The notes under the pieces are model-generated. The model was given only the letters and a program-made list of their open reading frames with translations. It made no database searches and was not told where the DNA came from. A DNA stretch of 64,000 nucleotides, taken from NCBI GenBank assembly GCA_035537255.1, contig DATLMN010000065.1, forward strand, positions 826 through 64,825, written 5' to 3'. Within the stretch, counting starts at the first letter, position 1. Every line of letters starts with the position of its first letter. Shown piece by piece: positions 163 to 57,985 of this stretch. Position numbers and translations under genes: made by a program. Origin of the DNA: Pyrinomonadaceae bacterium (GTDB lineage: Bacteria > Acidobacteriota > Blastocatellia > Pyrinomonadales > Pyrinomonadaceae).

Positions 163-165
163 CTC

Positions 166-262
166 AATTTTGAATTTTAGATTTTGGATTTCGGATTGAA
201 AGACATATCCTATTGCGTCGAAGTCGCTAGCTAATCCAAGAGCCAATTCTAAAATCTAAAAT
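166..262. repeat. Heptamer-arm inverted repeat, family A copy 1
   Basis: 5' arm TTTTGAA TTTTAGA TTTTGGA TTTCGGA; 3' arm AATCCAAGAGCCAATTCTAAAATCTAAAAT. Spans from 4 nt after TGA (160-162) to the ATG at 261. Confidence 0.85.
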
Positions 263-1214
263 GCTCCAACATGTCTCCTCGACAGTCGAACAGATTCTGA
301 CAGAGCTTCGCAAGATCGTCGTCGGCCAGGACGAGCCCATAGAGCAAATCATGGTCGCGCTGCTGGCCGAAGGGCACGCGCTGATCGAGGGCGTGCCGGG
401 CACGGCGAAGACTCTGACCGTCAAGACGCTCGCGCGTATCATCGGCGCAGGTTTTAGCCGCATACAGTTTACGCCAGACCTGATGCCTTCGGACATCACG
501 GGTACGAACGTCTTTAACGTCGCCACCTCGGATTTTACTCTGCGACGAGGGCCTGTCTTTACGGACATCCTGCTGGCGGACGAGATCAACCGCACACCGC
601 CGAAGACGCAGGCCGCGCTCCTTGAAGCGATGGAAGAGCGACAGGTCACGATTGACGGCGATCAGCATCCTCTCTCGCCGCTCTTTACCGTGCTTGCTAC
701 GGAAAATCCGATTGAGTACGAAGGCACGTACCCGCTCCCGGAAGCGCAGCTTGATCGCTTCCTGCTCAAAATCCTGCTCGACTATCCCAGTGAGCAGGCG
801 GAGCAACAGGTCGTCGCCAACTGGGACGCTGGCTTTAACGCGCGCCGCCTTGAACAGGTCGACATTCGCCCTCTGGCCGAGCCGGACGCCATCTCAAAGT
901 GTCGCATGGAAGTGCGCGAGGCACGCATGGAGCCTGGCGTGCAGCGTTACATCGTAGAGATCGTGCGCCGCACGCGCGCGCATCCATCCGTGCTTTACGG
1001 CGCGAGCCCACGCGCATCCGTTGCGCTCCTGCTCTGCACCAAGGCGCTCTCCGCACTTCGCGGCAGAGAATTCGCCACGCCCGACGACGTGCGCGACATC
1101 GCGCGACCCGTACTGCGCCACCGTTTATCGCTACGCGCCGAAGCAGAACTCGACGGCGCAACACCCGACGCCGTCATCACAGACATCTTGCAGACCGTTG
1201 AAGTACCAAGATGA
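261..1214 (+). CDS. MoxR-class AAA+ ATPase
   Basis: 317-aa ORF with Walker A GVPGTAKT and [27 protein letters not shown], typical of MoxR-type ATPases. Followed by a DUF58 gene as in MoxR/Bat-type operons. The ATG sits inside the 3' arm of repeat A1 and has no SD. Confidence 0.9.
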
Positions 1215-1338
1215 TTCCATTTTGGATTTTAGATTTTGGGTTTTGGATTGGCACGTTACGCAGGTTGAAAGCCTCGATTCCAAAATTCAACATAACGAAT
1301 CGCTAATCTAAAATCCAAAATCTAAAATCCAAAATTGA
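1215..1338. repeat. Heptamer-arm inverted repeat, family A copy 2
   Basis: 5' arm TTTTGGA TTTTAGA TTTTGGG TTTTGGA; 3' arm TAATCTA AAATCCA AAATCTA AAATCCA AAATT. Starts right after the moxR stop (1212-1214) and ends 4-6 nt before the ATG at 1342. Confidence 0.9.
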
Positions 1339-1341
1339 CCG

Positions 1342-2661
1342 ATGCGTTTCGTTTTCACCAAACTCTTTTACGTGTTGCTCGCGGTGGGCTTTATTCCGTT
1401 GTCGCTCTCCTGGGGGCGGCCCATTTTGCGCTGGGCGACGCTTTTCTTTGACATAGTGCTGATTACGCTGGCGCTGATCGACGCGCGTATGAGCCGCTGG
1501 CCTGCGGGTGTCGAGGTCTTGCGCGAGTTCGGCGGGCGCTTTGCCGTCGGCGCGGAGACGGAGGTGCGAGTCCGTGTGCTGAATAACACTGCGAGCGCAG
1601 TCACTGTCTGGGTGAAGGACGAGTTTCCGCCGGAGATGGAGTTGAAGGGTTTGCGTGAGGCGCGCATTCGTGTGCAAGCGCTGGAGACGGCCGCGCTCCA
1701 TTACGAGTTGAAGCCGCCAAAACGCGGGCGCTTCGTTTTCGGCCACACGGCCCTGCGTTATCTTTCGCGTTTTGGTCTGGCGTGGTGTCAAAGGCACGTG
1801 GGCGAGCCCTTCGCCGTCAAGGTCTATCCGAATATGCGGCGGGCGCGCGAAGCGGAGTTGAAGGCGCTGGGTGCGCGCTCGCTGGTGGCCGCGCATCGTC
1901 GTTCTTCCTGGCGCGGCGAGGGTCGCGAGTTTGAATCTTTGCGCGACTATGTGCGCGGGGACGAACTGCGTCATGTCTCATGGACGGCGACCGCACGACG
2001 CGGCAGGCTCGTCACACGTCAGTACCAGATAGAGCGCGATCAAACCATTCTGGTGGCTTTGGACGCCGGGCGTTTGATGACGGCGCGCATAGAGCGCGAG
2101 ACGAAACTCGATCTGGCGATTCATGCGACGCTGGCGCTGATGTCTGCGGCGGCGCGCGGCGGCGACAATGCCGGAATAGTCGTCTTCGGTCGGCGCATCA
2201 AATCTTACCTGCCGCCCAAACGCGGCGGCGAGCACATGGACGCGGCCCTCGAAGCCCTCTACGCCGTCGAGCCGGAGATGATCGAGCCATCCTATGCGCG
2301 CGCCTTCGAGTTCATCGCCGCCAACTGTAAGCGGCGCGCTCTGGTCGTCGTCCTCACAGACCTCGTGGACGAAGAGGGCTCGCGCGAGCTGCTGACATCG
2401 CTCAAGCTTTTGCGCCCGCGACATCTGCCGCTCGTCGTCACCATAGGGGATCGCGACCTCAAGGAAGTCGTCCGCCACACGCCCGCAACGACGCGCGACC
2501 TTTTCACGCAATCCGTCGCCGAAGAGATTATCCATCAACGCGAGGCAGCGCTGCGCCGCGTCGAATCACAGGGCGGCCTCGCGCTCGACGTAACAGCCGC
2601 CGCACTCGCGCCGACGCTTCTGGAAAAGTACTTGCAGGTCAAAGAGCGAGGACTACTTTAA
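1342..2661 (+). CDS. DUF58 domain protein (MoxR partner, vWA-like)
   Basis: 439-aa ORF with N-terminal TM helices and the DUF58 signature REFESLRDYVRGDELRHVSW..RRGRLVTRQYQIERD. Lies directly downstream of the MoxR gene. Confidence 0.85.
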   Translation: MRFVFTKLFYVLLAVGFIPLSLSWGRPILRWATLFFDIVLITLALIDARMSRWPAGVEVLREFGGRFAVGAETEVRVRVLNNTASAVTVWVKDEFPPEMELKGLREARIRVQALETAALHYELKPPKRGRFVFGHTALRYLSRFGLAWCQRHVGEPFAVKVYPNMRRAREAELKALGARSLVAAHRRSSWRGEGREFESLRDYVRGDELRHVSWTATARRGRLVTRQYQIERDQTILVALDAGRLMTARIERETKLDLAIHATLALMSAAARGGDNAGIVVFGRRIKSYLPPKRGGEHMDAALEALYAVEPEMIEPSYARAFEFIAANCKRRALVVVLTDLVDEEGSRELLTSLKLLRPRHLPLVVTIGDRDLKEVVRHTPATTRDLFTQSVAEEIIHQREAALRRVESQGGLALDVTAAALAPTLLEKYLQVKERGLL

Positions 2662-3774: not shown

Positions 3775-3874
3775 ATAGTTTTCAGTTTTCAGCAATCAGT
3801 TTTCAGAAGTTGAAAGCCGCACGACAGGTGTTAATATAAACGCTGGTCGCTGAAAACTAAAAACTGAAAACTAT
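3775..3874. repeat. Heptamer-arm inverted repeat, family B copy 1
   Basis: AGTTTTC AGTTTTC AGCAATC AGTTTTC ... GCTGAAAACTAAAAACTGAAAACT. Occupies the whole divergent gap between starts 3770 (-) and 3879 (+). Confidence 0.9.
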
Positions 3875-3878
3875 TTGT

Positions 3879-5417
3879 ATGGATCGCCTCGTCGAATGTG
3901 TACCAAACTTTAGCGAAGGTCGCAAGCCTGAAGTGATCGAGCGGCTGGCTCAAACCGTCGAGTCTGTCGAAGGCGCGGTCGTCCTGGACACGCACATCGA
4001 CGCCGATCACAACCGCTCTGTGATTACGTTCGTCGCGGAAGCGGAACAGGTGGTCGAGGCCGCCGTGCGTGTGGTCGCGCTCGCCTCAGAGCTGATCGAT
4101 CTGCGCCAGCACAGGGGCGAGCACCCGCGTCTTGGCGCAACCGATGTACTGCCTTTTGTTCCCGTGCGCGGCGTGATGATGGAGGACTGCATACGATTGG
4201 CCCACGAGGCGGGCGAGCGCATAGCCTTTGAGCTTGGCATTCCCGTCTACTTTTATGAGCGCGCCGCGCGCCGTCCTGATCGTGTGAATCTGGAAGACGT
4301 GCGCCGTGGCGGCTACGAGCTGCTGCGCGAAGAGATCGCAAGCGTAGAGCGCCGCGCGCCGGACGTGGGCCCACCACGACTGCATGAAAACGCCGGGGCC
4401 ATCGTCGTCGGCGCGCGACCTCTGCTCGTCGCCTATAACGTCAATCTGCAAACCGACGATATATCAATCGCCAGACGAATTGCGCACGCCGTGCGCGGGC
4501 GCGATGGAGGCTTACGCTATCTTAAAGCGCTCGGCTTCGAGCTTCAGACGCGCGGTATTGTGCAGGTCTCCATGAACCTGATCGATTACGAGAAGACGCA
4601 GCTTCATCACGCCTTCGAGGCCGTGCGCCGCGAGGCGTTGCGTTACGGCGTCTCTATCGTGGGCAGCGAGATCGTAGGGCTTATCCCGCAGGCCGCGCTC
4701 GACCGCGCCGCCGAATATCATTTACAGATTGAGAATTTCGCGCCCGGACTGGTGCTCGAAAATCGGATCGCAGCGGCGTTCACTGGTAAGGGCGAAAAGG
4801 AGACCGTCAGGGATTTCGCGCAGGCCGTGGCGAGCGCAGAGCCTGCGCCGGGCGGTGGCGCGGCTGCTGCACAGGCGGCATCGCTTGGCGCGGCGCTCGG
4901 CGAGATGATCGGCCACCTGACTGAGGGGCGTGAAAAATTCGCAGACGTGCAGCAAGAGATAGAGGAAGCGCTCGCAGAGTTAGCGCCGTTGCGCAATCAT
5001 CTGCGCCTTGCGGCCGCGCGCGATGCGGAGAGTTTTCAGCGCGTCGTGGATGCGCGCGGCCTTCCGCGTTCGACGGAAGATGAGAGAGTCCTGCGCGCCA
5101 GCGAGATAGAGGCGGCCTTGAAGGGCGCGGCGACCGTGCCGCTTGAGATTGCCAAGTTGGCGGTGCAGGTGCTTGAGCTGCTTGAAACCCTGTCGGAGAT
5201 CGGCAATCCGGTTGCCCTGTCGGACGCCGCCACGGGCGCGCAGCTAGCTCTGGCCTCGGTCGCCTCCGCGCGCTACAACGTGCTCGTCAATACGGCGGAG
5301 ATTGAAGATGAAGAGTTTGCCAGGGAGCATCGTTCGCGCGCAGATGATCTCATGGAGCGCGCGAGGGGAAGCGCCGCGCGCGTCGAAGCCATGTTTATGG
5401 ATTCAATCAAAGCTTGA
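3879..5417 (+). CDS. ftcD: Bifunctional glutamate formimidoyltransferase / formimidoyltetrahydrofolate cyclodeaminase
   Basis: N-terminus MDRLVECVPNFSEGR.. is the formiminotransferase signature. The C-terminal ~190 aa (..PAPGGGAAAAQAASLGAALGEMIG..) match the cyclodeaminase domain. Confidence 0.8.
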   Translation: MDRLVECVPNFSEGRKPEVIERLAQTVESVEGAVVLDTHIDADHNRSVITFVAEAEQVVEAAVRVVALASELIDLRQHRGEHPRLGATDVLPFVPVRGVMMEDCIRLAHEAGERIAFELGIPVYFYERAARRPDRVNLEDVRRGGYELLREEIASVERRAPDVGPPRLHENAGAIVVGARPLLVAYNVNLQTDDISIARRIAHAVRGRDGGLRYLKALGFELQTRGIVQVSMNLIDYEKTQLHHAFEAVRREALRYGVSIVGSEIVGLIPQAALDRAAEYHLQIENFAPGLVLENRIAAAFTGKGEKETVRDFAQAVASAEPAPGGGAAAAQAASLGAALGEMIGHLTEGREKFADVQQEIEEALAELAPLRNHLRLAAARDAESFQRVVDARGLPRSTEDERVLRASEIEAALKGAATVPLEIAKLAVQVLELLETLSEIGNPVALSDAATGAQLALASVASARYNVLVNTAEIEDEEFAREHRSRADDLMERARGSAARVEAMFMDSIKA

Positions 5418-9160: not shown

Positions 9161-10849
9161 TTACTTGCCTGTCCGCGCCATCGCGGCATCGGCGTTAACC
9201 AGACCATTACCGAACGTTGTGTCATAGCCCGCCGCGCCGAGGTCTGTGGCGGACTTCTTCAGCGCGTCTTCAATCGCAGCAGCCGTATAAGTGGGATTGG
9301 CTGCCCAGATCAGAGCCGCGACACCTGTGACATGCGGCGTCGCCATAGACGTGCCGCTGTTGTAATCCCAGTTGGTCGCCTTGTTGACGACTGTGCCGTT
9401 CGTGCCAGCCTGAGCGATAAGCGTCGCGCCCGTCACGTCCGAGACGGTCACGGCGGGAACCCATGCGCGTCCGTCCGTAGTGGTGGCTGCGCCGAGCGTG
9501 CCGCCGAAATCTCCTGCCACGTTGTTGTAAACGATGGCCGCGACTGCTCCGGCGTTCATCGCGTTCTGGACTTTTTCGGCAAAGCTGAGCGTGCCCCGCT
9601 GGATAACCGCGATGTTACCCGAGACGGAAGCCGGAAATTCGCCGACCTGACCGAGGCCGCAGTTGACCAGCGTGCGTGTGATGCCGTTGGTCTGACCCGC
9701 GAAAGTCATCCCGAAGGCCGCGAAAGTCGCGGTGCTCGTCACGGAAGTGTCAAAGCCCTGTCCAAGCGGCACACTGGAAGCAACGTCGACGCCCGGGCCG
9801 ACCAGGTCTATGGCCGTCGTTCCGCGATTCGAGAAGCTCGCAATGGCATTGTTCTTATCCACAGCGCCGACCGCGAGGTTGACCGTGTAGGCCGCAGGAT
9901 AGCTGACCTGATTGGTGAAACCGTCGTTGCCCGTGGCCGCGACGATGATCGCGCCGTACTTGTTGCGGCAGTCGTTATAGAAGCGCTGCTCGGAAAGGGA
10001 AGGAGCGCCGCCGCCTAGACTCATGTTGACGAGGTCGACCTTCGGCCCTGCGGCGTCAGAGACGAGCCACTTGACACCGGCCATGATGCCGGAGCTTGAG
10101 CCTGTCGCAGTGCCGCTGGCCGCATCGCCCTTGAGGACGCGCGCATGATACAGACGCGCACTGTAGGCAGCGCCGTAGACGCCATAGTTGCTGCCCCTGA
10201 CGCCTAGAATCGTTCCGGCCACGTGCGTGCCGTGCGACTCCAAGGGATCGTTATTCCACCAGGGATTGCCGTCCCTTTCGAACGTGTCGTAACCGGCCAC
10301 GTAGTTGGCCGCGATGTCCGGATGCGTGTAGTCCAGACCCGTGTCGGCGATGCCTACTTTAAAGCTCGCGCCGGAATATCCGCGCGCGTGAACGTTGGTC
10401 GTCTTTGTAGTTACCAAGCCGTAAAGGCCGTTGGTAGCGGTCGGCACGAGTTCGCTGGTCGTGAGGTCTGAGAGTCCCATCGCGTAGCGCATGGGTTCCT
10501 GTTCGACGTATTCGACGTTGGGATTATTTTGAAGTGCGGCAAGCTGATTGGGATTATGAATCTCTATAGCAATGAATCTTTGTTCGGGGAACTCGTGACG
10601 CACTGTAGCGCCGTGAGACTTAACCATCGCGCGGTTGGCGGCTGTCACGCCGTTTTTGAAAGAGACGAAATACCTGCCTTCGGCAAAGTCCGGGCGATGC
10701 GAGGCGGCTGCTGATTGTGTCTGATCCGAGAAGCGACCGCCTGAAGGGCCATCCAGGCGATTACGCCCCTGCTGACCAACGACAAGGACAGAAGCAAGCG
10801 TCATAGCGCATAAAGCTACTGCAAGGGATAACGCGAAAACTTTCTTCAT
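9161..10849 (-). CDS. Secreted S8 peptidase with inserted PA domain
   Basis: Signal peptide MKKVFALSLAVALCAMTLA. Catalytic motifs [20 protein letters not shown] and GTSMATPHVTG. PA-like insert ..GNIAVIQRGTLSFAEKVQNAMNAGAVAAIVYNN. Confidence 0.85.
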   Translation of the reverse strand: MKKVFALSLAVALCAMTLASVLVVGQQGRNRLDGPSGGRFSDQTQSAAASHRPDFAEGRYFVSFKNGVTAANRAMVKSHGATVRHEFPEQRFIAIEIHNPNQLAALQNNPNVEYVEQEPMRYAMGLSDLTTSELVPTATNGLYGLVTTKTTNVHARGYSGASFKVGIADTGLDYTHPDIAANYVAGYDTFERDGNPWWNNDPLESHGTHVAGTILGVRGSNYGVYGAAYSARLYHARVLKGDAASGTATGSSSGIMAGVKWLVSDAAGPKVDLVNMSLGGGAPSLSEQRFYNDCRNKYGAIIVAATGNDGFTNQVSYPAAYTVNLAVGAVDKNNAIASFSNRGTTAIDLVGPGVDVASSVPLGQGFDTSVTSTATFAAFGMTFAGQTNGITRTLVNCGLGQVGEFPASVSGNIAVIQRGTLSFAEKVQNAMNAGAVAAIVYNNVAGDFGGTLGAATTTDGRAWVPAVTVSDVTGATLIAQAGTNGTVVNKATNWDYNSGTSMATPHVTGVAALIWAANPTYTAAAIEDALKKSATDLGAAGYDTTFGNGLVNADAAMARTGK

Positions 10850-14335: not shown

Positions 14336-14551
14336 AGCCCCTGAAAGGGGCGAAAGAATATAGCCCACGGCTGATGCCGCGGGGACAAGTGTCATACAGA
14401 GAGTAAGAGCCCCGAAGGGGCGAAAGAGATTCGTGTTTAAGATTTACTCAACACGGATTTCTCTCGCCCCTCCGGGGCTCTGATTTTTGTTTAGCCGTGT
14501 GCCCATGACTCACGTCATGGTCTACATTACGCTCGCCCCTTGCAGGGGCTT
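14336..14551. repeat. MITE-like multi-hairpin element R, copy 1
   Basis: About 215 bp. Sub-hairpins GCCCCTgaaAGGGGC, CCCACGGCtgatGCCGCGGG, a long central hairpin GAGCCCCGAAGGGGCGAAAGAGATTCGTGTT..AACACGGATTTCTCTCGCCCCTCCGGGGCTC, CCATGACtcacGTCATGG and GCCCCTtgcAGGGGC. Confidence 0.9.
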
Positions 14552-17680: not shown

Positions 17681-17757
17681 AAAAAGCAGATGTCAGATGT
17701 CAGATGCTGGATGCTAGTCAAAGCATTTCTCTAACATCTAACATCCGGCATCTGCTC
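17681..17757. repeat. Heptamer-arm inverted repeat, family G
   Basis: GCAGATG TCAGATG TCAGATG CTGGATG CTAG ... CTAACAT CTAACAT CCGGCAT CTGC. Lies between two convergent genes. Confidence 0.9.
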
Positions 17758-17758
17758 T

Positions 17759-18418
17759 TTATTGTTGCTTGCAGGGCGTGACGGCAGTAGTTGATGTTTG
17801 GGGTTGTTGCAGGAAGGCTGCCGGCTTGGCGTCTAATCCAAGACGCTCGCGTATAAACTTCTCGACATCGGCTTCGATCAGCTCGCCGTTGACGACCCAG
17901 GCCGATTCCGTCAACACGTCGCCTGTCTTTTTCAATTTCGACGGCTCAAGAAAGATGTTCCAGGGCGAGCCCCAGCGGCGCGTATCTCCCGCCAGTTGTC
18001 GATAACCGTAATGCGTCGTCTTGTCGCGATCTTCGCGCGCTTCGGATTCCGTCACCACGGTATAGGGCGCGCCCGCTTCGCCGAAGTATGCGCGCGCATC
18101 TGCGGCGGTAGCGTACTCGCTGACGGCGACGACATCCAAGCCCTGCGCCCTGTACTTCTCATAGAGGCGTGCGGCCACCGGCGCTTCGTTGCGCCAGTTG
18201 GGACACCACGGCGCGAAATAGACGACCATCACTAGACGCTTGCCCTGCACGAGCGAGCGCAGGTTGACGGGCGAGCCGTCCTTCACACTCTTATACGTCC
18301 AGTCCTTGTAGTTAACCGTCTTCTCTACGAGCGGCGAGTATTCATGACCGTCCTGCGCGCTTGCCGACACGGGCGCGAGCGCGAATATAAGAGCGACGAA
18401 GAAAAAAAGTCTGCGCAT
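17759..18418 (-). CDS. Secreted thioredoxin-fold protein with monothiol WCPNW motif
   Basis: Signal peptide MRRLFFFVALIFALAPVSASA. Redoxin-like VMVVYFAPWCPNWRNEAP, where the second Cys of CxxC is replaced by Trp. Confidence 0.7.
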   Translation of the reverse strand: MRRLFFFVALIFALAPVSASAQDGHEYSPLVEKTVNYKDWTYKSVKDGSPVNLRSLVQGKRLVMVVYFAPWCPNWRNEAPVAARLYEKYRAQGLDVVAVSEYATAADARAYFGEAGAPYTVVTESEAREDRDKTTHYGYRQLAGDTRRWGSPWNIFLEPSKLKKTGDVLTESAWVVNGELIEADVEKFIRERLGLDAKPAAFLQQPQTSTTAVTPCKQQ

Positions 18419-18434
18419 TGATACTACTCCAAGA

Positions 18435-18501
18435 TAGTTTTCAGTTTTCAGTAATCAGTTTTCAGTTAAAACAAAAAGCTGAAAACTCAAAACTGAAAAC
18501 T
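18435..18501. repeat. Heptamer-arm inverted repeat, family B copy 2
   Basis: AGTTTTC AGTTTTC AGTAATC AGTTTTC ... GCTGAAAACTCAAAACTGAAAACT. Lies between the CcdA-Trx stop and the Trx-like gene start. Confidence 0.9.
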
Positions 18502-18503
18502 GT

Positions 18504-24587: not shown

Positions 24588-24709
24588 CAGAAGTCAGAAA
24601 TCAGGACTCAGAATTCAGAATAGAGGCGCGGCAGGTGCTTCTTACCTTGAACTATGATTCCTGAACGACGCTCTTCTACTGACTCCTGAATTCTGAGTCC
24701 TGAGTCCTA
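24588..24709. repeat. Heptamer-arm inverted repeat, family F
   Basis: TCAGAAA TCAGGAC TCAGAAT TCAGAAT ... CTACTGA CTCCTGA ATTCTGA GTCCTGA GTCCT. Lies in the divergent gap between thiO-like and IDH. Confidence 0.9.
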
Positions 24710-24713
24710 TCTT

Positions 24714-25715
<1,002 letters not shown>

Positions 25716-25720
25716 TTAGC

Positions 25721-25937
25721 AAGCCCCTGCAAGGGCTAAAGAATGTAGCCCACGGCGTCAGCCGTGGGGGACAAGTGTCATACAGAGAGTGAGAGCCCCG
25801 AAGGGGCGAAAGAGATTCGTGTTTGAGATTTACTCAACACGGATTTCTGTCGCCCCTCCGGGGCTCTGAATTTTGTTTAGCCGTGTGCCCATGACTTACG
25901 TCATGGTCTACATTACGCTCGCCCTTTGCAGAGGCTT
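25721..25937. repeat. MITE-like multi-hairpin element R, copy 2
   Basis: Collinear with copy 1 with only scattered substitutions (roughly 95% identity by eye, not computed). Confidence 0.9.
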
Positions 25938-31184: not shown

Positions 31185-31432
31185 AAGCCCCTGATAAGAG
31201 GCGATAGAATGTAGCCCATGACGTAAGTGGGGAAAGCAGTCAAGCAAAGAGTGAGAGCCCCGAAGGGGCGACAGAAATCCGATGTTGAGTATCTTTCAAA
31301 GATGAATCTCTTTCGCCCCTTCGGGGCTCTCACTCTTTGTATCAACTGTCCCCAAGGCTGACGCCGTGGGCTACACTCTATCGCCCCCTTCGGGGCTTGC
31401 TTGGCTGCATTTTGCCGCCCCTTCTGGGCTTT
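31185..31432. repeat. MITE-like multi-hairpin element R, copy 3 (inverted, more diverged)
   Basis: Same modules in the opposite order (..TAGCCCATGACGTAAGTGGGG..GAGAGCCCCGAAGGGGCGACAG..CCCCAAGGCTGACGCCGTGGGCTA..). Confidence 0.8.
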
Positions 31433-33132: not shown

Positions 33133-36099
33133 CTAAGCGACGGGAGTCGTCACTGCCGAGGCCGCCTCGTAATCGCCCGCGACGACGACCGTCAGGTGTT
33201 CGGGCCTGAAGTATTTGCGAATCGCCGCGTTGACCTCCTCAACTGTGACCGCCTGAATGATCTGCGGATAGCGGTCTATGTAGTCCACACCCAGACCGTA
33301 AAACTCTGCATTCCACAGCGCACGCGAGAGCCCAGCGTTGGTCGCGAGCCCGACTTTGAAAGAGCCTATGGCCGAAGATTTTTCATCCGCCAGCTCGTCC
33401 TCCCTTATGCCATGCTCGACGTAATCGCGCAGCACTGTGAGCGCAGAGTTGATAGCCTTCTCTACATTCTGTGGATTGACAGTGACGCCTACGTACCAGG
33501 GGCCGGCCGCCAGCGTCGGCGCGCGAAAGATGGAATTGATACCGTAGGTCAAACCCTCTTTGTCACGTACCTGTAGTCCAAGACGCGAGGAGAGCGTCGA
33601 TTGGCCCAACGCGCTGTTGGCGATTATCGCTGCGTAGTAATCCGAAGAGTCGCGGCGCAGCGGCGCGGCCGTTCCGATCAGCACATCAACGCTCGCCTTC
33701 TCTTTGAGGATGACGACTTCGCGTCGCGAGCCCTGTTGCTGTTCCGGGTCTCGGACGCTGATGTCGACGCTTTCAGGCCCTCCGAAGGAATCGAACGCTT
33801 CCGTGAACTGTGAGCGAACTTCATCCGCAGAGACATCGCCCGTCGTGACCAGGATGAGCGAGCGTCCGCCGTAATATTTTTGATAAAAGGCGCGTACATC
33901 TTCCACCGTGATCGAGTTGATGCTTTCGATCAGACGCTCGCCCGGCGGAACGAAGAAGGGATGCTCAGGGTCGAAGATGACCCCTGTGAAGCGCTCGTAG
34001 CCGCGATAGCGAGTGTTGGCCTGTTGCTCCTGAATCGAGGCGATTGATTGCTGCTTGAGCTTCTCCAATTCGTCTGCGGGGAACGCCGGCTCGCGCAACT
34101 CCTCTGCGAGCGCGCGGATCACTAGCGGTAAATCTTTGGCGAGCGCGCGTGCCACGAAGTTGACGGCGAAAGGGTCTGTCGAAAAATCCATCTCGGCCCC
34201 GACCGATTCAAGATCGCTGGCGAGTTGTAGCTTATCGCGCCGCAAAGTTCCGCGCTCAAGCATACCGGCCGTCAGATTCGCCAGCCCGGGCTTAGAGCGC
34301 GGCTCAAAATAAGAGCCCGCGCGAAGAGAGCCGCGCACGGAAACTGTCGGTGTCGCATGATTTTCCAGCACGAGCAAGGTTGCGCCCGTCTCAAGCTGTG
34401 TGCGCGCAACTCTTGAAGCAAGATTTGATTGGCCCACACTCTTAGGCGTATTCGCTTCAGCCGCGTCCGAAGATTTACTGCCGCGTCCTCCTGCTTGCCC
34501 CCGCTGCGCCGTCTCCTGCGGAGTCACGGAGCCGCCGCTGCCAGAGCCACGACCGCCATCCATCTCGCCATTAGACCTATCAAACGCAGCGCTCGGCTCA
34601 TCAGCTTCGGGCTCGTCATAAAACTTGACGCTGCGGCGCGGGAAGAGATCGCGAAGCGATGTGGCTTGACTGCTGCTTATGGCGCTCACTGATCCGTCTC
34701 CGTTACCGCTGCCGTTTCCATTGCCGCCGCCATTACTGTTACTGCCCGGCTGCTTCGGAATAAAATGGCCGACCGTGCGATTGTCTTCCGTGAAGTAGGT
34801 GCGCGCCACACGCGCCGTGTCCGCGCGCGTCACCTTCGCGATGTTCGTCGTGTAATCCTTGTAGAAGCGCCAGTCTGCGACGGCTTCGGCCTCGGACAAC
34901 TGAACGGCGATGGCGTAAGTTCCGTCGCTGTTATAAGCCTGCTGCGCGATGATCTGTTGTTTGGCCTTTTCGACTTCGGCTTCGGTCAAGCCTTCGCGCG
35001 CGACTCTATCCAACTCCAGGAGGATTTTTTCTTCGACCACTTTGGGCTCGACGCCCGGCGTCACGAGCGCGACCGCGTTGAAGAGTCCAGGGTCGCGATG
35101 CTGATCCGTATTGGCGTAAGCGTGAACGGCGAGCTGCGTCTCGACCAGCGATTGATAAAGGCGGCTGGTGATGCCTTGCGAGAGCGCGACCGAGAGCACG
35201 ACGAGCGGATAAATATCGTTCTCGACGGGCGGGGCTGCGGCACGCTCTGCCAGCTCACTGTTCGAGAGCACGTTCATTTGCCCTAGCACGCCCGGCGTAT
35301 GAAAGGCTATCTGCACGACGGCCAGCTCGCCGACGCGGCGAATCACCAGACGGCGCTCGCCCTGTTGCGGCGGCTCTTCTGTGTAAACTTCCGGGATCGG
35401 CTCTGTCGAAGCCTGATACGCACCGAAATAATTTTTGATTAGATCGAGCACCATCGCGCGTTCGAAATCGCCGACGATAATCACCGTCGCATTGTTCGGG
35501 TGATAAAAGGTGTCGTAGAAGGCCTTGAGGCGAGAGGTCGGCACGCCCTCGACATCAGCGCGCCAGCCGATGGTCGGATGATGATAGGGATGCTCGCGAA
35601 ACGCTGCGGCGTAGACGGCTTCGTCCAGAACTTCGGTCGGCTCGTTCTGTCCGCGCTCTAATTCGTTTCTGACCACGGTCATCTCGGACTGCCTGTCCTC
35701 GTCCGCGATCAGAGAGTTACGCATGCGGTCTGCTTCCAACTTTATCGCCAGCTCGATCTGATCCGACGGGACGGTCTGAAAATAGTTCGTGCGGTCGTAC
35801 CAGGTGGTCGCGTTAAAGTCCGCTCCGATCTTTTGCAGAGTGGCGGCGATCTGCGTATTGCTGGCCTTGTTAAAGGTCGGCGTGCCCTTGAACATCATAT
35901 GCTCAAGCAGATGCGTCGAGCCGGTGTAGCCTACGGCCTCGTTGCGCGAGCCGACCTTGTAGAGCACCAGCACGGTCGCCACGGGCGCAACTCGGTTTTC
36001 CAACAGCAACACTTTCATCCCGTTTTCCAGTCGGTACTCTTCGATCCCGTCCGCAGCCGCGACAAACTGGACGCCGTCCGGTAATTGTTCGTTCTCCAC
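33133..36099 (-). CDS. M16 (pitrilysin/insulinase) family peptidase, two M16 units fused
   Basis: HLLEHMMFKG (inverted zinc motif HxxEH) in the N-terminal unit and a second, inactive-type M16 unit. The two are separated by ~120 aa of Gly/Asn/Ser-rich low-complexity linker. Confidence 0.85.
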   Translation of the reverse strand: MENEQLPDGVQFVAAADGIEEYRLENGMKVLLLENRVAPVATVLVLYKVGSRNEAVGYTGSTHLLEHMMFKGTPTFNKASNTQIAATLQKIGADFNATTWYDRTNYFQTVPSDQIELAIKLEADRMRNSLIADEDRQSEMTVVRNELERGQNEPTEVLDEAVYAAAFREHPYHHPTIGWRADVEGVPTSRLKAFYDTFYHPNNATVIIVGDFERAMVLDLIKNYFGAYQASTEPIPEVYTEEPPQQGERRLVIRRVGELAVVQIAFHTPGVLGQMNVLSNSELAERAAAPPVENDIYPLVVLSVALSQGITSRLYQSLVETQLAVHAYANTDQHRDPGLFNAVALVTPGVEPKVVEEKILLELDRVAREGLTEAEVEKAKQQIIAQQAYNSDGTYAIAVQLSEAEAVADWRFYKDYTTNIAKVTRADTARVARTYFTEDNRTVGHFIPKQPGSNSNGGGNGNGSGNGDGSVSAISSSQATSLRDLFPRRSVKFYDEPEADEPSAAFDRSNGEMDGGRGSGSGGSVTPQETAQRGQAGGRGSKSSDAAEANTPKSVGQSNLASRVARTQLETGATLLVLENHATPTVSVRGSLRAGSYFEPRSKPGLANLTAGMLERGTLRRDKLQLASDLESVGAEMDFSTDPFAVNFVARALAKDLPLVIRALAEELREPAFPADELEKLKQQSIASIQEQQANTRYRGYERFTGVIFDPEHPFFVPPGERLIESINSITVEDVRAFYQKYYGGRSLILVTTGDVSADEVRSQFTEAFDSFGGPESVDISVRDPEQQQGSRREVVILKEKASVDVLIGTAAPLRRDSSDYYAAIIANSALGQSTLSSRLGLQVRDKEGLTYGINSIFRAPTLAAGPWYVGVTVNPQNVEKAINSALTVLRDYVEHGIREDELADEKSSAIGSFKVGLATNAGLSRALWNAEFYGLGVDYIDRYPQIIQAVTVEEVNAAIRKYFRPEHLTVVVAGDYEAASAVTTPVA

Positions 36100-36265: not shown

Positions 36266-37630
36266 CTAGAAATTTTCCAGCACGAGGAGCGCCGTTTCGC
36301 CGCCGCCCGAAGAGACGTTGCAGAGCGAAGAGGCCGAGAGACGCACCAGCGCGCCCTCTACACGGTTGAGAAAGAGGAAGGGATTGAAGTCTATAAACAT
36401 CTCGTCTGTGAAGAGGCTGTCCGCCGTGAACATCGCCATGCGCGCTTTCTCGACCATGACGCGCTCCTGCACAACGAAGGAGTTTTGGAGAGCGAGCCGG
36501 ATGGCTTCCTCCCAAGCAGAGGTATCCGTCTCCCAGCCGATCACCACGCCATGACCGCCGTAATCGTCATTGGGTTTGATGACCAGACGCTCGCGCTCTT
36601 TCAGCAACACATCCAGAAGATCACGCTCCGCGCCACGGTAGGTCGTTTTACCGTCGCGCACGCGCCGCGTCCAGGGAATATGTTTAAGTATGCAGGCAAC
36701 CTGCTCCGGCGTGAACAGATAATGGTACGCTGGATCGCTGAGGATGGCGAAGCCCGCCTTCTTGTGGGCCAACTTTGTGCGGAAGGAGTTAATCAGGCAG
36801 ACCTTGTGCTCAATGTAAGCGCGCGCGAGCGGATGCGTCTCGTCGAACTTTTCCAGAAATTCATGAATAATGACGCGCTTGTAAAGAATATCTATCCGAA
36901 AATCTCCGGCGCGAAGCTCCTGGCCGTCGTATTCAAGAGAGCGCGGGTCTGCGATGATTGTCCTGTAGCCTTCCGCTTCAAAGTAATCTTTCAAAATCTC
37001 GAACTCGCTGGCGGTCGAGACGCCCTCCCAGTCGACGATGGCGATCTGCGCGTGCTCGCTCCTGTGGCCGCTCCACTCGCGATAGGTTTCGAGCATCGCA
37101 CGCAGTAGAGCTTGGTGCGGGCGCGGCAGCCAGTGTGCGCCGTGCTCTGCGAGAAACTCTTTCATGTGCGGTAGACCAAAGAGCACCTTTTCAAGCTGCA
37201 TCTGGTCGGCAATCCCCGCTGGGCTTTCGGCGTTGTATTCCAGAAACTGAAAATCCTCGCCGTCAAGATAAGCATCCAGACGGCTGGTCACGCAAAGCGT
37301 CTGGTATCCGGGATCGAAGCGCGCCATTCTCTTTTCGCGCTCGGTCAAATCCAGCTCGTTCATCAGCGCATCATCCTGAAGCGCCGCGTGGGCCAACCGC
37401 TCAAAGGCTGCGGCGAGCGTCTCTGCGGCACGCGCGACGCGCGTGTACTGCGAGCGCGAGAGAATCAGCGGGCGAAGAAAGGGACACGTGGGGCGCTCGT
37501 CATGCAGCAGTCCAAGCTCGCGCTGCGTATTGAGCAACTGCTCGAACAGTGGTGGGCCAATCGAGGCATCGCGCGCGATGCGCTCGTCCAGCCGACTAAC
37601 GGTTGAAGCAAGCTGCTTCGGGTTTGACAT
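36266..37630 (-). CDS. Circularly permuted ATP-grasp family protein
   Basis: ..RLDAYLDGEDFQFLEYNAESPAG.. and C-terminal ..ALVRLSASSLCNVSSGGGETALLV resemble the CP-ATP-grasp (DUF404/407-type) pattern. ATG at 37630 with GGAG upstream. Confidence 0.55.
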   Translation of the reverse strand: MSNPKQLASTVSRLDERIARDASIGPPLFEQLLNTQRELGLLHDERPTCPFLRPLILSRSQYTRVARAAETLAAAFERLAHAALQDDALMNELDLTEREKRMARFDPGYQTLCVTSRLDAYLDGEDFQFLEYNAESPAGIADQMQLEKVLFGLPHMKEFLAEHGAHWLPRPHQALLRAMLETYREWSGHRSEHAQIAIVDWEGVSTASEFEILKDYFEAEGYRTIIADPRSLEYDGQELRAGDFRIDILYKRVIIHEFLEKFDETHPLARAYIEHKVCLINSFRTKLAHKKAGFAILSDPAYHYLFTPEQVACILKHIPWTRRVRDGKTTYRGAERDLLDVLLKERERLVIKPNDDYGGHGVVIGWETDTSAWEEAIRLALQNSFVVQERVMVEKARMAMFTADSLFTDEMFIDFNPFLFLNRVEGALVRLSASSLCNVSSGGGETALLVLENF

Positions 37631-37746
37631 ATTCGAAGGTCTCCAACGGGGGAGCAGGAAGAGGCAGATCATGCGAGGCGACGGACGGTACTAATCTAAC
37701 GGACTATGACGCTCTTGCTAAACCTTATCACAGAATCATCTTGGCT

Positions 37747-37947
37747 GCTTCAGCAATCGAAGCAAGAGTGGTAGGTCAATTTGAATAATTGAATAAGCAT
37801 TGCACCAGAGACTCACCACAGAGACACAGAGGACACGTAGATGACACAGAGAGTCAGTATCACTCAAACCTCCGTGCTTCCTCTGTGCCTCTGTGGTGAA
37901 TGGCAGCTTTCATCACTCTCAATTTCAAATTGACCCACTACTGAAGC
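37747..37947. repeat. Nested inverted repeat, family H-like core inside an outer palindrome
   Basis: Core CACCACAGAGACACAGAGGACACG ... CGTGCTTCCTCTGTGCCTCTGTGGTG. Outer arms AGTGGTAGGTCAATTTGAA / TTCAAATTGACCCACTACT. Confidence 0.75.
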
Positions 37948-38112
37948 GAGAGCGGCAGCCGTCTAAATTTCGGTGGCGGACGCCGAAGTAATAGTCTAAG
38001 ATTCCGGCCAAGCGATTCCCCTGTTTCCCTCTTTGATGTCAGGCCCAAGGGTTTGCCGCTCCTGACGGCGAACCCGATTCGATAATCCGCGCAAGGGGAA
38101 GAATCTTAACTT

Positions 38113-45685: not shown

Positions 45686-45797
45686 AAAAATAAGGGATGA
45701 AGGATGAGGGATGAGGGATGAAGTAAAGACGGACTGAATGATTCAACACTTGGTCGGTTCAATCATTCATCCCTCACGCTGCCGCCCTCATCCCTTC
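45686..45797. repeat. Heptamer-arm inverted repeat, family C copy 2
   Basis: GGGATGA AGGATGA GGGATGA GGGATGA ... TTCATCCCTCACGCTGCCGCCCTCATCCC, with inner palindrome GAATGATT/AATCATTC. Lies between phoB and phoR. Confidence 0.9.
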
Positions 45798-46482
45798 TAT
45801 TGGCGCATCCGACAAAGCGATAGCCAACGCCGATGACTGTTTCCAGGCACGAGCCGCAGTCGCCAAGCTTTTGTCTAAGGCGACGAATATGTACGTCCAG
45901 AGTGCGCGTGTCGCCGTAATACTGGTGTCCCCAGACATCGTCCAGGAGTCGCTGGCGCGTCGCGACGCGACCGGCGCTCTTTGCCAGCATGGAGAGCAGC
46001 GCAAACTCCTTGCGTGTGAGCTTGACGCTCTCGCCGTCGCAAGTGACCTGCATATCTGCGAAATCAATCTGTAGACGACTGTCCTCGTAACGCGCGCTCT
46101 GATTATCGTCTGTGCGGCGCAACACTGCGCGAACGCGCGCCATCAGCTCGCGCACGGAGAAAGGCTTCGCAATGTAGTCGTCAGCGCCAAGATCAAGCCC
46201 GGCTACACGATCAGCCTCAGAGACGCGCGCCGTCAACATAATAATCGGGGTGCGTCGCGTCGCGGGCTCGCGCCTGAGGCGGCGGCACAACTCCATGCCG
46301 CTCATTCCCGGCAGCATCAAATCCAGAATCACGAGCGCCGGTGGACTCTTGACATCGAGCGCCGCCGCCAGGCCCTTTTCGCCCGTCTCGGCAATTCGCA
46401 CCTCAAGCCCGTCGCGCTCTAGATTGTAGCGCAGGCTCTCCGCAATATCCGCGTCATCTTCGACGATCAGTATAGGTCGCAT
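45763..46482 (-). CDS. phoB: OmpR-family response regulator (PhoB-like)
   Basis: Receiver domain ILIVEDD..DLMLPG..; winged-helix C-terminus ..IGVGYRF. The last ~11 codons and the stop are encoded by repeat C2. Confidence 0.8.
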   Translation of the reverse strand: MRPILIVEDDADIAESLRYNLERDGLEVRIAETGEKGLAAALDVKSPPALVILDLMLPGMSGMELCRRLRREPATRRTPIIMLTARVSEADRVAGLDLGADDYIAKPFSVRELMARVRAVLRRTDDNQSARYEDSRLQIDFADMQVTCDGESVKLTRKEFALLSMLAKSAGRVATRQRLLDDVWGHQYYGDTRTLDVHIRRLRQKLGDCGSCLETVIGVGYRFVGCANRRDEGGSVRDE

Positions 46483-46593
46483 AAAAGCAGGGATGAGGGC
46501 GGAGGGATGAGGGATGAAAGGGGTTGAGCGAATGATTCATTTGTAATGTGATTCAGCGGTTCATCCCTCATCCTTCATCCCTCATCCCTTCGT
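46483..46593. repeat. Heptamer-arm inverted repeat, family C copy 3
   Basis: GGGATGA GGGCGGA GGGATGA GGGATGA ... TCATCCC TCATCCT TCATCCC TCATCCC. Lies between phoU and phoB. Confidence 0.9.
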
Positions 46594-47253
46594 TCAGTTG
46601 CTGTGTTTGATAAAGGCGGCTTCGGTCATGTAAACGGTCAGCTCGCAGATGTCCGTGACGTAATCGCCGATGCGTTCGATGTGTTTGGCGACGAAGAGCA
46701 GTCGCGCGGCGCGCGTCGTCGTCGCAGGGTCTTGGGTCATCAGCTCGATCAGATCGTGAAAGATGCCATTATAGAGTTCGTCTATCTGGTCGTCCCGCGC
46801 GATGACTCTGCGCGCGGCCGCCGCATCATTGGTAGTGAAGGCGTTAAGTGCAGCATGCAGCATGCTGGCCGCGTGCTCTGCCATCAGCGGCAGATCGACG
46901 TGGGTTTTGAGTTGCGGCTCATCGTTAAGGTCAATGGTGGCGCGGGCGATGTTGCAGGCGTGATCGGCGATGCGTTCCAGGAGCGGCGTGATCTTCGCCA
47001 CGGAGATGACGAAGCGCAGGTCGCGCGCCGCCGGTTGACGCAGCGCGATGGTGTCGACGCAGAGACGATCTATTTCCAGCTCAAGTTGATCTATCTCGTC
47101 ATCGCCCGCGAGAACTTCACGCGCCGTCGCGCTATCGCGTTCGACCAGCGCGTACATAGCTCTCTGAAGCGCCGTCTCCGTCTCGCCGCCCAGCAGCAGC
47201 ACGCGGTCACGTAAAACGCCCAGCTCGCGATCAAGTAATCTATGCTGTTCCAT
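46594..47253 (-). CDS. phoU: Phosphate signalling complex protein PhoU
   Basis: 219 aa with the two PhoU repeats containing E/DxxxD-type motifs (..RIADHACNIA.. / ..RIGDYVTDIC..). Confidence 0.9.
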   Translation of the reverse strand: MEQHRLLDRELGVLRDRVLLLGGETETALQRAMYALVERDSATAREVLAGDDEIDQLELEIDRLCVDTIALRQPAARDLRFVISVAKITPLLERIADHACNIARATIDLNDEPQLKTHVDLPLMAEHAASMLHAALNAFTTNDAAAARRVIARDDQIDELYNGIFHDLIELMTQDPATTTRAARLLFVAKHIERIGDYVTDICELTVYMTEAAFIKHSN

Positions 47254-47347
47254 AACTCAATTTTGGATTTTAGATTTTGGATTAACGAACGGATTGAATG
47301 AAGCTGACGGCTCTATCTCTCAATCCAAAATCCAAAATCTAAAATTA
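47254..47347. repeat. Heptamer-arm inverted repeat, family A copy 3
   Basis: TTTTGGA TTTTAGA TTTTGGA ... AATCCAAAATCCAAAATCTAAAATT. Fills the pstB-stop to phoU-start gap. Confidence 0.9.
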
Positions 47348-48205
47348 ACCAAACCGTCCGGTAATGTAATCCTCCGTCAGCTTCTCTTCGGGATTGGTGA
47401 ACATGCGCTCTGTGGCGTTGACCTCTATCAGTTTACCCAGCCAGAAGAAGGCCGTCTTGTCGGAGACGCGCGCCGCCTGCTGCATATTATGCGTAACGAT
47501 GACAATAGTGTACTGCTCTTTGAGGCCGACGATCAGCTCTTCGATCTTTTGCGTCGCAATCGGATCGAGCGCCGATGCGGGCTCGTCCATCAATACGACT
47601 TCGGGACGCACAGCCAGCGCACGCGCGATACAAAGACGCTGTTGTTGCCCGCCTGACAGACCGAGCGCTGATGATTTCAAACGGTCTTTCACTTCGGGCC
47701 AGAGCGCCGCATCCAGCAGCGCCTGTTCGACTCTCTCGTGCAGCTCCGCCTTGTTCGCCGCCAGTCGATTGATGCGCAGACCGTAAGCGACGTTGTCGAA
47801 GATGGATTTCGGGAACGGGTTAGACTTTTGAAAAACCATCCCGACTTTGCGACGCAGTTCGACGACATCCGTGTCGGGCGCGTAGATGTCTTGCCCGTCA
47901 ATCTCGATTATCCCTTCGGCGCGTGTGCCGGGAATGGTATCGTTCATGCGATTCAATGTGCGCAGGAACGTAGACTTGCCGCAGCCGGACGGCCCGATCA
48001 GAGCCATCACGCCGCGCTCAGGGATGTTCAGAGAGATATTGTAGAGCGCCTGCGCCCGGCCGTAAAAAAAGTTCAGCTCGCGTACGCCGATTTTTATCTC
48101 GGAAGGGGCGCGCTCCATTTGCTTGCTCACCCGTTCCCGCTCGTCATCAGGAAGTGATTCAGCCATACGGGGCACGCTCACCATTTTTTGAGCTGGCATT
48201 GACAT
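47345..48205 (-). CDS. pstB: Phosphate ABC transporter ATP-binding protein
   Basis: GPSGCGKST Walker [10 protein letters not shown] signature and VLMDEP Walker B. The N-terminal region is typical of PstB. ATG 48205 was chosen because the longer ORF would read through repeat E. Confidence 0.9.
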
Positions 48206-48213
48206 TTTAAATA

Positions 48214-48303
48214 CAGTGACAAGTGACGAGTGGCGACTGACAAGTAAGAAGTCAAAAGCTTTTTCACTGCTTGTCACTTGTCACTTGCCACTCTTCACTG
48301 CTT
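48214..48303. repeat. Heptamer-arm inverted repeat, family E
   Basis: ACAGTGA CAAGTGA CGAGTGG CGACTGA CAAGTAA ... CACTGCTTGTCACTTGTCACTTGCCACTCTTCACTG. Lies between pstA and pstB. Confidence 0.9.
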
Positions 48304-50163: not shown

Positions 50164-50256
50164 AAAAAGCAGGGATGAGGGCGGAGGGATGAGGGATGAA
50201 GGAAGAACAGTTCAACTTGAATAATTTCTTATTCATCCCTCATCCTTCATCCCTTA
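50164..50256. repeat. Heptamer-arm inverted repeat, family C copy 4
   Basis: GGGATGA GGGCGGA GGGATGA GGGATGA AGGAAGA ... TTCATCCC TCATCCT TCATCCC. Lies between pstS and pstC. Its loop ..GTTCAAC|TTGAATAA.. equals the C1 loop without the tRNA-like core. Confidence 0.9.
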
Positions 50257-57697: not shown

Positions 57698-57985
57698 TTA
57701 TGGTCTTCTGTTGCCGTTACCGTTACCGTTGCCCGCGCCCGTGCCACGTGCATTTGAATTCAAGTTGGATACACCGGCCGTGTTCGCATTACCGTTGTTG
57801 TTGACGACAGTCGCCACATTGGAATTGGGATTGACACGCGGACTGATGTTGGCGTTGGTCTCGACCACACCGTTTCTGGTGGCGTTGTTGCTAGCGCTGT
57901 TACTATTGTTACTATTGTCGCCGCCGCAGCCAGCCAAGAAGCTGGCGACGATGAGCGCGACCGGGAGAGCTAAGGTTCGTCGCAT
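57698..57985 (-). CDS. Asn-rich small lipoprotein
   Basis: MRRTLALPVALIVASFLAGC lipobox (LAGC), followed by an N/S/G-rich low-complexity tail. Confidence 0.5.
   Translation of the reverse strand: MRRTLALPVALIVASFLAGCGGDNSNNSNSASNNATRNGVVETNANISPRVNPNSNVATVVNNNGNANTAGVSNLNSNARGTGAGNGNGNGNRRP

Follow-up and report, generated by a model that had tools for sequence, protein, structure and literature searches.

Miniature heptamer-armed hairpins between stop and start codons in Pyrinomonadaceae operons are probable ORF-less copies of an intervening-sequence-like element

We examined a 64,000-nucleotide stretch of the genome of a Pyrinomonadaceae bacterium (GenBank assembly GCA_035537255.1, contig DATLMN010000065.1, positions 826 to 64,825 of the forward strand; here called the window, with positions counted from its first letter). 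Three related hairpins, A1, A2 and A3, lie in this window between adjacent cistrons. A1 (167-263, forward strand) is a decayed copy that begins at 167, 4 nt past the TGA (160-162) of an open reading frame (ORF) in frame 1, assigned to the DUF4350 family; a DUF4350 gene is found upstream of moxR on contig L001. The 5' array of A1 occupies 167-197 (TTTTGAATTTTAGATTTTGGATTTCGGATT), and its degenerate 3' array occupies 232-260. The ATG of moxR (261-263) lies inside the 3' arm (..AAAATCTAAAATG) and overlaps the helix. moxR (261-1214, forward strand, TGA at 1212-1214) encodes a MoxR-type AAA+ ATPase (Pfam AAA_3, E = 1e-63) and is followed by A2 (1216-1338, forward strand), an intact copy with arms at 1216-1252 and 1302-1338, which form a 37-nt inverted repeat of 89% complementarity around a 49-nt loop. 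Three nucleotides past the 3' arm of A2 is the ATG of a DUF58/VWA gene (1342-2661, forward strand; Pfam DUF58, E = 1e-33). A3 (47254-47347, reverse strand) fills the spacer between pstB and phoU, and Pfam analysis assigned these flanking genes to PstB (ABC_tran) and PhoU. Its arms (47259-47283 and 47322-47346) form a 25-nt inverted repeat of 92% complementarity. A3 starts directly after the pstB TAA (47345-47347), and the phoU ATG (47251-47253) lies 5 nt past its end, which reads AAAATTGAGTT.

Tandem Repeats Finder detected a period of 7 in both arms of all three hairpins, and the pattern TTTTRGATTTTRGATT had 14 matches against 0.03 expected, far above chance. In A2 and A3, the distance from stop codon to helix is 0 to 4 nt and that from helix to start codon is 3 to 6 nt. 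These coordinates, read directly from the sequence, bear out the proposal of an earlier sequence-only reading that each hairpin spans the interval between a stop codon and the start codon that follows it. The moxR start position is kept in eight relatives and that of the DUF58 gene in four (L002, L007 and L008 among them), whatever sits upstream, so both start assignments appear sound.

The same reading had claimed that the three downstream genes lack a Shine-Dalgarno (SD) sequence. This was confirmed by a motif scan, which found no GGAG, GAGG or AGGA upstream of the moxR, DUF58 or phoU start. It had also reported AGGAG sites at other genes of the window, and these were seen at 9161-10849 (reverse strand), 33133-36099 (reverse strand), 41803 and pstS. 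SD sites are uncommon overall, being present at about 14 of 45 window genes; when the window and its relatives were pooled, a GGAG/GAGG-type site preceded 25 of 117 genes, against a background of about 8%. The comparison that the sequence-only reading had called for, of array-preceded with other genes, was made within the window: an SD was found at none of the 11 genes that start flush with an array, compared with 14 of the 34 other genes (p = 0.01). Junctions of relatives that contain no hairpin (moxR/DUF58 or phoB/phoR) also lack the GGAG/GAGG core. The core is likewise absent from the moxR-region junctions where relatives carry other heptamer families, and weak AGGGA- or AAGGA-like matches do occur at the moxR-region junctions of relatives.

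Folding of the RNA predicted a helix of about 34 bp for A2 (-52.1 kcal/mol, z -7.6) and of about 20 to 28 bp for A3 (-31.3 kcal/mol, z -4.6). For A1, the predicted fold is weak (-21 kcal/mol, z -1.3); its helix measures just 15 bp and pairs 174-188 with 248-262. The helix of about 30 bp originally ascribed to all three copies therefore does not apply to A1. Given these folding energies, the region 5' of the downstream start in A2 and A3 is predicted to be held in a helix of high stability, the other foot of which lies at the upstream stop codon, and the start would thus be unusable on the intact polycistronic RNA unless the helix is opened or cut; for A1, such sequestration is weak. An Rfam search at gathering thresholds returned nothing at the hairpins. 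In E-value mode, the only matches were far-sub-threshold look-alikes of plant and animal microRNA precursors on both strands, which we dismissed as generic long hairpins. Intrinsic termination was rejected for family A, whose AU-rich stems are followed by TTGACCG, TTGAGTT or ATG. The sole terminator-scan match overlapping A2 (stem at 1206-1225) takes as its tail the T-rich start of the array itself, not a sequence past the 3' arm.

Inspection of related genomes revealed a longer form of the same element. In L007, whose MoxR is 89% identical to that of the window, arms of the A1-A3 family (family A, heptamer TTTTRGA) stand about 400 nt apart around a gene for a 130-amino-acid PF05635 protein (Pfam E = 4e-16), and the moxR ATG follows the 3' array without a gap. 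Four further array pairs surround PF05635-like genes on metagenome contigs (L086, L124, L132 and L189), and arrays flank five of the six PF05635-like genes in 2.16 Mb of sequence. These metagenome contigs were chosen by array pattern. An array-independent sample was obtained by a protein search with the L007 protein, which gave about 8000 matches with E-values of 1e-10 or better; the best 120 of these all belong to PF05635, are 70 to 100% identical to the query and come from acidobacteria and cyanobacteria. Six homologues on long contigs were inspected, including those of the cyanobacterium Kamptonema formosum (L202) and of Blastocatellia and Pyrinomonadaceae bins. The PF05635 gene lies between two same-strand genes in all six, and in at least four of them the neighbours are adjacent transporter genes (solute-binding protein and permease, oppB and oppC). 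A (TTTTRGA)4-5 array lies within 2 nt past the upstream stop codon in five of the six; in L204, the array overlaps the stop. The next called ATG is 1 to 15 nt past the last heptamer, again in five of six, and L206 is without an adjacent downstream gene. In four of the six, the cargo ORF reads into the 3' arm, (AATCYAAAA)n, and stops 1 to 49 nt short of the next called start. Of the best 120 homologues, 91 terminate in N[PL]KSKI.., the peptide encoded by the 3' array. A distant homologue, found on a low-GC contig (L098), is built in the same way from TTTTTGA heptamers.

Each end of this element is an array of TTTTRGA heptamers, the 3' array being the inverse of the 5' one and reading TCYAAAA; the full-length form carries one PF05635 gene. 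Full-length and miniature copies alike occupy a very short spacer, from a stop codon to the next start. The termini of the window copies match those of the full-length element L207 at 27 of 27 positions for A2 and 28 of 28 for A3, the stop codon of the cargo gene (NPKSKIQN*) included. Indeed, the 3' end of A2, AATCCAAAATCTAAAATCCAAAATTGA, is the coding end and stop of the four-helix-bundle gene of the full-length element. No PF05635 ORF was found in the loops of the window hairpins (34 to 55 nt) in a tblastn search of the whole window with two four-helix-bundle proteins. Remnants of the four-helix-bundle gene were also sought in these loops with blastn-short, and the candidates were discarded, as the matches fell in the arms alone; the NPKSKIQN* coding end is the sole remnant. 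On this evidence, we consider A1, A2 and A3 to be ORF-less miniature copies of a dispersed palindromic, intervening-sequence-like element inserted between cistrons, with a probability of roughly 0.7; how the helix is opened is inferred. Since the element class itself spans stop to start without an SD, the arrangement is not a device evolved for moxR, DUF58 or phoU.

We also noted that ORFs run into the arrays. The TauE gene upstream of the element in L007 ends in the 5' array (..MILDFGFSILD*), and four-helix-bundle proteins end ..NPKSKIQN (L007, 9535-9565 and 9972-10008; P0006; L086). The arrays add short repetitive peptide tails in this way and can therefore mislead the annotation of starts and stops.

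The placement of family-A arrays was assessed in a sample of 140 arrays from 120 metagenome contigs with G+C contents of 0.24 to 0.67. A long ORF starts within 10 nt downstream of 38 arrays in the A-rich reading, compared with 4 in the T-rich reading (p = 6e-8), and a long ORF stops within 10 nt upstream of 27 arrays in the T-rich reading, compared with 3. An inverted partner is present in only 45 of the 140, the other 95 being solo. Solo arrays follow the same start rule (23 of 95 in the A-rich reading and 2 of 95 in the T-rich reading). Heptamer direct repeats next to start codons are known from cyanobacteria as short tandemly repeated repetitive (STRR) sequences. With at least three tandem 7-nt units in an intergenic position, in one orientation and a few nucleotides before a start, the family-A arrays have the properties of this STRR/TAACTGA type.

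Family A is not the only family in the window. Twelve hairpins have arms of three to five tandem heptamers and fall into at least six sequence families: A (TTTTRGA, three copies), B (AGGGATG, four copies), C (AGTTTTC, two copies), and D (CAGAATT), E (AGTGACA) and an unnamed CAGATGT family with one copy each. All 12 intergenic heptamer arrays of the window have a paired partner. Nine of the hairpins lie between same-strand genes, including five of the six junctions of pstS-C-A-B-phoU-phoB-phoR. The class is not confined to same-strand pairs: one family-C hairpin (C1) and hairpin D lie between divergent genes, and a tRNA-bearing family-B hairpin lies between convergent genes. Among 24 hairpins in six Pyrinomonadaceae sequences, the feet are for the most part no more than about 10 nt away from the neighbouring stop or start codon. 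Nearly every family combines a 5' arm rich in G and T with a 3' arm poor in G, and the latter therefore cannot contain ATG, GTG or TTG. An exception was observed at the phoU/phoB junction of L212 (5661-5742), where the 5' arm is C-rich (AGTCCCA) and a G-rich 3' arm (TGGGACT) stands directly before the ATG.

Comparison with relatives indicated that the hairpins are replaced rapidly. The nearest MoxR loci are in Pyrinomonadaceae bins with 77 to 90% identity, which, together with an Rfam Acido-Lenti-1 match in the window, supports the assignment of the window to this family. L002 carries a hairpin of the AGGGATG family 5' of moxR and one of CGTAAAT between moxR and DUF58; the moxR junction of L003 carries a CTTTGAA family and that of L004 a GATTTTC-like unit. 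No hairpin is present between moxR and DUF58 in L007 (45-nt spacer) or L008 (5-nt spacer, GTG start). When the pst-pho junctions of the window and four relatives were compared, 22 of 30 were occupied by hairpins or arrays built of heptamers from many unrelated families. GGAG is absent upstream of every start at these 22 junctions, and the empty ones measure 1 to 21 nt. Identical 30-nt family-B arms that include the odd unit GGGCGGA (AGGGATGAGGGCGGAGGGATGAGGGATGAA) occur in L007 and at three loci of the window. Between A2 and an element at the non-orthologous pstB/phoU junction of another genome, L210, identity is 87.5% with the loop (43/55) counted; the L210 element is less similar to A3, though A3 is at the orthologous site. 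Because identical family-B arms recur and A2 shares its loop with L210, whole elements appear to have been copied. In this respect, they resemble miniature inverted-repeat transposable elements (MITEs), with terminal inverted repeats and dispersed copies that have a conserved interior, as seen for A2 and L210. In the full-length copies, the PF05635 gene (117 to 144 amino acids) stands alone between the arms, and the transposase expected of a full-length relative of a MITE is thus absent. The hairpins are dispersed, fast-turning-over elements, and the Pyrinomonadaceae lineage has many heptamer-stem families that colonise operon junctions, with quick turnover between species.

Solo 3' arms were also observed at the pst junctions of relatives, as (CTGAAAA)n before pstB and (GCCTACT)n before phoB, and a 17-nt pstB/phoU spacer contains the remnant GATTTTAGATT (loci L211, 4075-4167 and 4984-5000; L213, 5661-5715). 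These solo arms and the remnant are possible footprints of the decay or excision of hairpins.

The remaining hairpins of the window are as follows. A family-B hairpin at 2660-2814, between the convergent DUF58 and SpoIIM-like genes, has a perfect 33-bp stem (33/33 Watson-Crick pairs) and encloses in its loop a tRNA-Lys(CTT) gene at 2702-2775 (ARAGORN; the Rfam score of 39 bits is low for a tRNA). No tRNA was found at the DUF58/SpoIIM-like junction in six relatives. A role of the tRNA as conserved processing context was ruled out, because tRNA-Lys is missing from this orthologous junction. The tRNA gene is perhaps cargo, or else an insertion specific to the lineage, and the stem around it would resemble an rRNA-type processing stem. 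The other family-B hairpins, all on the reverse strand, are at the phoB/phoR (45687-45801), phoU/phoB (46484-46594) and pstS/pstC (50171-50258) junctions. The family-E hairpin occupies the pstA/pstB junction (48215-48299, reverse strand); pstB probably starts with the ATG at 48203-48205, and a GTG at 48277 inside hairpin E is spurious. C1 (3775-3874) fills a divergent spacer and is flush with both start codons. The second family-C hairpin (18436-18502, reverse strand) lies between two same-strand redoxin genes and has GGAG between hairpin and ATG. Hairpin D (24588-24717), with arms of CAGAATT/CAGGACT units, fills the divergent spacer between genes for a DAO oxidoreductase and an isocitrate/isopropylmalate dehydrogenase and overlaps both starts. 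The CAGATGT-family hairpin (17681-17760, reverse strand) lies directly past a stop codon and is followed by a T7 run, which gives it a terminator-like appearance.

Several other repeats were seen in the window. A second class consists of G+C-rich nested palindromes (AGAGCCCCGAAGGGGCGAAAGAGAT...) at 31200-31400, 14406-14481 and 25792-25867. Small GYGTAAGC-looped hairpins adjoin an Rfam match to Acido-Lenti-1 (31351-31397, 39.6 bits), and related copies are present at the DUF58/SpoIIM junction of L002 (12400-12610). The 351-nt spacer at 37660-38010, between the genes at 36266-37672 (reverse strand) and 38113 (forward strand), folds at -122 kcal/mol. It contains nested inverted repeats of 8-nt CACAGAGA-like units, with arms at 37813-37833 and 37879-37899, and represents a longer, different palindromic element. 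Tandem repeats with 21-, 12- and 6-nt units (GTTACCATAGTAACCACCATT; GTTACC) occur in a lower-GC stretch at 56600-56660 and 57700-57920 and are unrelated to the heptamer hairpins.

Three known kinds of sequence are relevant here: rRNA intervening sequences with S23p, start-proximal heptamer repeats and miniature palindromic repeats in operons. The last kind includes the Neisseria Correia elements (also known as Neisseria miniature insertion sequences, NEMIS), enterobacterial repetitive intergenic consensus (ERIC) sequences, and repetitive extragenic palindromes with the bacterial interspersed mosaic elements that they form (REP/BIME), all of which are co-transcribed in operons. Correia elements are reported substrates of RNase III that alter mRNA stability. 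Like these repeats, the heptamer hairpins belong to a class of about 100 to 150 bp that has terminal inverted repeats, is dispersed in the intergenic parts of operons and folds in the mRNA. Unlike them, they have tandem-heptamer arms, a full-length relative with no transposase, no consistent target-site duplication and a placement flush with stop and start.

The 23S rRNA intervening sequence of Coxiella burnetii has a 28-bp stem of terminal inverted repeats and tandem GACAGAT heptamers, variable in copy number, directly upstream of the ATG of S23p, and its stem is cleaved at the middle by RNase III (PMC4990558). Intervening sequences with an S23p/PF05635 ORF (C. burnetii, Leptospira; PMC4990558) share with the elements described here a long heptamer stem, PF05635 cargo and the form of a self-contained stem-loop inside a transcript. 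A2 and A3 have the long stem (about 25 bp or more) of the rRNA type, A1 only its shorter one. The host site differs, being helix 9, 25 or 45 of 23S rRNA in the known cases; all copies studied here lie between protein-coding genes. The heptamer also differs (GACAGAT in Coxiella, TTTTRGA here), the three window copies have lost the ORF, and RNase III excision, which has been shown for the rRNA element, is inferred here.

As for start-proximal repeats, the TAACTGA repeats of Beggiatoaceae, cyanobacteria and Bacteroidetes end about 1 nt before starts where ribosome binding sites are rare (PMC4679880), and (TTCAAAA)3 and GACYAAT repeats are found at the Nostoc recF and recO starts (bioRxiv 10.1101/2022.06.06.494920). 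Common to these and the present arrays are three to six tandem 7-nt units in fixed orientation 0 to 5 nt before a start, the lack of a canonical SD, a position inside operons and the occurrence of the same heptamer in distant phyla. The published repeats have been described as direct repeats only, whereas those reported here form inverted pairs and long hairpins and can carry PF05635 cargo; neither publication makes the link to PF05635. The association of PF05635 with heptamer termini outside rRNA, the precise stop-to-start placement and the acidobacterial family of mini-hairpins are not described in the accessible literature.

The following course of events seems likely. The arms would pair in the polycistronic RNA, giving a helix of 20 to 34 bp in A2 and A3 and of 15 bp in the decayed A1, and the insert would be extruded. 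This pairing and extrusion would allow the insert to be tolerated. The stem could then be cut by RNase III, which seems probable because the build of the element matches that of the Coxiella intervening sequence, or be melted by a ribosome terminating at its 5' foot. The freed 3' array, G-poor and devoid of start codons, might then provide a short leader, free of structure, from which translation starts without an SD. Where the flanking genes are divergent, each mRNA would carry one arm only, and a promoter would therefore have to lie in the loop. Such a candidate promoter looks convincing only in C1, whose loop contains the promoter-like sequence TTGAAA-N16-TG-TAATAT at 3810-3837. The A2 and L210 loops have TTGAAA-N17-CAAnAT in common, a weak promoter match that may provide an alternative way of expressing the downstream gene and that we do not put forward as a conclusion.

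The loops of C1 (3810-3837) and A2 (1265-1292), which belong to different families, have a decamer in common, GTTGAAAGCC, with GTTGAAAGCT in L210 (about 4920-4950) and ATTGAAAGAC in A1. In C1, the decamer constitutes the -35 element of a near-consensus extended -10 promoter between the divergent genes. Its recurrence hints that the loops carry outward promoters.

A number of observations weigh against the view that A1 to A3 are miniature intervening-sequence-like elements. No similarity to the full-length element was seen in the loops of A1 and A3, and it is thus the termini that argue for descent by deletion. The link to PF05635 was seen for family A and one TTTTTGA variant (L098) and is not shown for families B, C, D and E. 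No transposase and no mechanism of spread were identified, and there is no consistent target-site duplication: TGA/TTGA occurs at both ends of A2 and L207 and not at those of L203, L209 or L202. As two-thirds of the metagenome family-A arrays are solo, arrays may also arise or persist alone. A comparison of G.U with A.C mismatches for sense-strand bias was uninformative (6 vs 7), so selection on the RNA helix is not demonstrated, and the near-perfect complementarity of the arms could reflect youth or homogenisation at the DNA level. Finally, cutting of the stem by RNase III, its melting by a ribosome and initiation without an SD are putative steps.

The sequence-only reading had proposed that the hairpins are a dedicated coupling device, which either joins stop and start for reinitiation across the base of the stem or exposes the start once an upstream ribosome melts the helix. 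Part of this proposal stands. Both feet of A2 and A3 abut codons, the starts behind them are predicted to be sequestered in helices too stable for spontaneous opening (-52 and -31 kcal/mol), and coupling is one way in which such a helix might be opened. RNA-unfolding and reinitiation models are both established (reviewed in PMC12548453). The reading of the cargo ORF through the 3' arm in four of six full-length copies would also be consistent with successive short-range coupling steps, a property that a mini-copy could retain only by means of its stem. As in known cases of translational coupling (PMC12548453), the downstream start of a same-strand pair is buried in structure that the upstream ribosome enters, and no SD is present. 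Those cases, however, involve gene-specific structures with a linear stop-to-start distance mostly under about 50 nt, and here the putative coupling would act across a dispersed insert of 90 to 125 nt. In a library screen cited in the same review, moreover, structure just past the stop correlated negatively with coupling. As the reason why the hairpins exist, coupling fares poorly. Hairpins of this class are also found where the flanking genes diverge or converge, most family-A arrays in the metagenome sample are solo yet close to start codons, and hairpin-free junctions of relatives lack the GGAG/GAGG core as well. In addition, A1 barely folds, orthologous junctions carry unrelated heptamer families, and the hairpins are copies of a dispersed element. 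We therefore regard a dedicated device as unlikely; a folded stem that keeps stop and start adjacent is nevertheless a reasonable account of why the inserts are tolerated.

The solo arrays raise a different possibility, that function resides in the array, with the hairpin being of secondary importance. In that case, the 3' array, poor in G, would be a protein-binding site (proposed binders are ribosomal protein S1, cold-shock proteins or CsrA) or an unstructured leader, arising in place by replication slippage as suggested for the cyanobacterial and Beggiatoa repeats. This would account for the start-codon rule of solo arrays and for the start-codon-free composition of nearly all 3' arms, and it has precedents in the TAACTGA (PMC4679880) and Nostoc (bioRxiv 10.1101/2022.06.06.494920) repeats. 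We consider it improbable, given that every intergenic array of the window is paired and that both the identical 30-nt arms with the odd unit, at four loci in two genomes, and the loop common to A2 and an element in another genome point to whole-element copying, not slippage. Least probable of all is that the hairpins are REP/BIME-like palindromes or intrinsic terminators that stabilise or attenuate the upstream mRNA and have no link to PF05635. T-runs do follow the 3' arm in family B and the CAGATGT family, and the position in the pst operon recalls the placement of REP sequences in enterobacterial operons. Against this, family A itself has AU-rich stems with no T-run past the 3' arm, its TTTTRGA arms contain no GTAG or CGTC head, and its termini are those of PF05635 elements.

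The relationship described here joins a cargo gene, heptamer arrays and an exact stop-to-start placement, and gives the repeats a testable origin. Few unexplained small genes are as common in cyanobacteria, Bacteroidetes and Acidobacteria as those for PF05635 'four helix bundle proteins', and the heptamer repeats seen at start codons for decades have lacked an explanation. Annotation is affected as well, since roughly one in four window genes starts right past such an array and genes are extended into the arrays by ORF finders. The finding also raises the question of how a gene is translated when its whole ribosome-binding region sits in a 30-bp helix. More speculatively, and at less than even odds, PF05635 cassettes with inverted heptamer ends may be unrecognised mobile 'intervening sequences of operons', which home to stop-start junctions of 1 to 20 nt in many phyla, are neutralised at the RNA level (through RNase III excision or by ribosomes crossing the base of the stem) and decay to mini-hairpins and solo arrays. 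If this is true, rRNA intervening sequences, the start-codon heptamer repeats of cyanobacteria and Beggiatoa and the acidobacterial hairpins would have one origin, and a role would be suggested for the abundant PF05635 proteins, for example as pentamers that bind three to five heptamer units.

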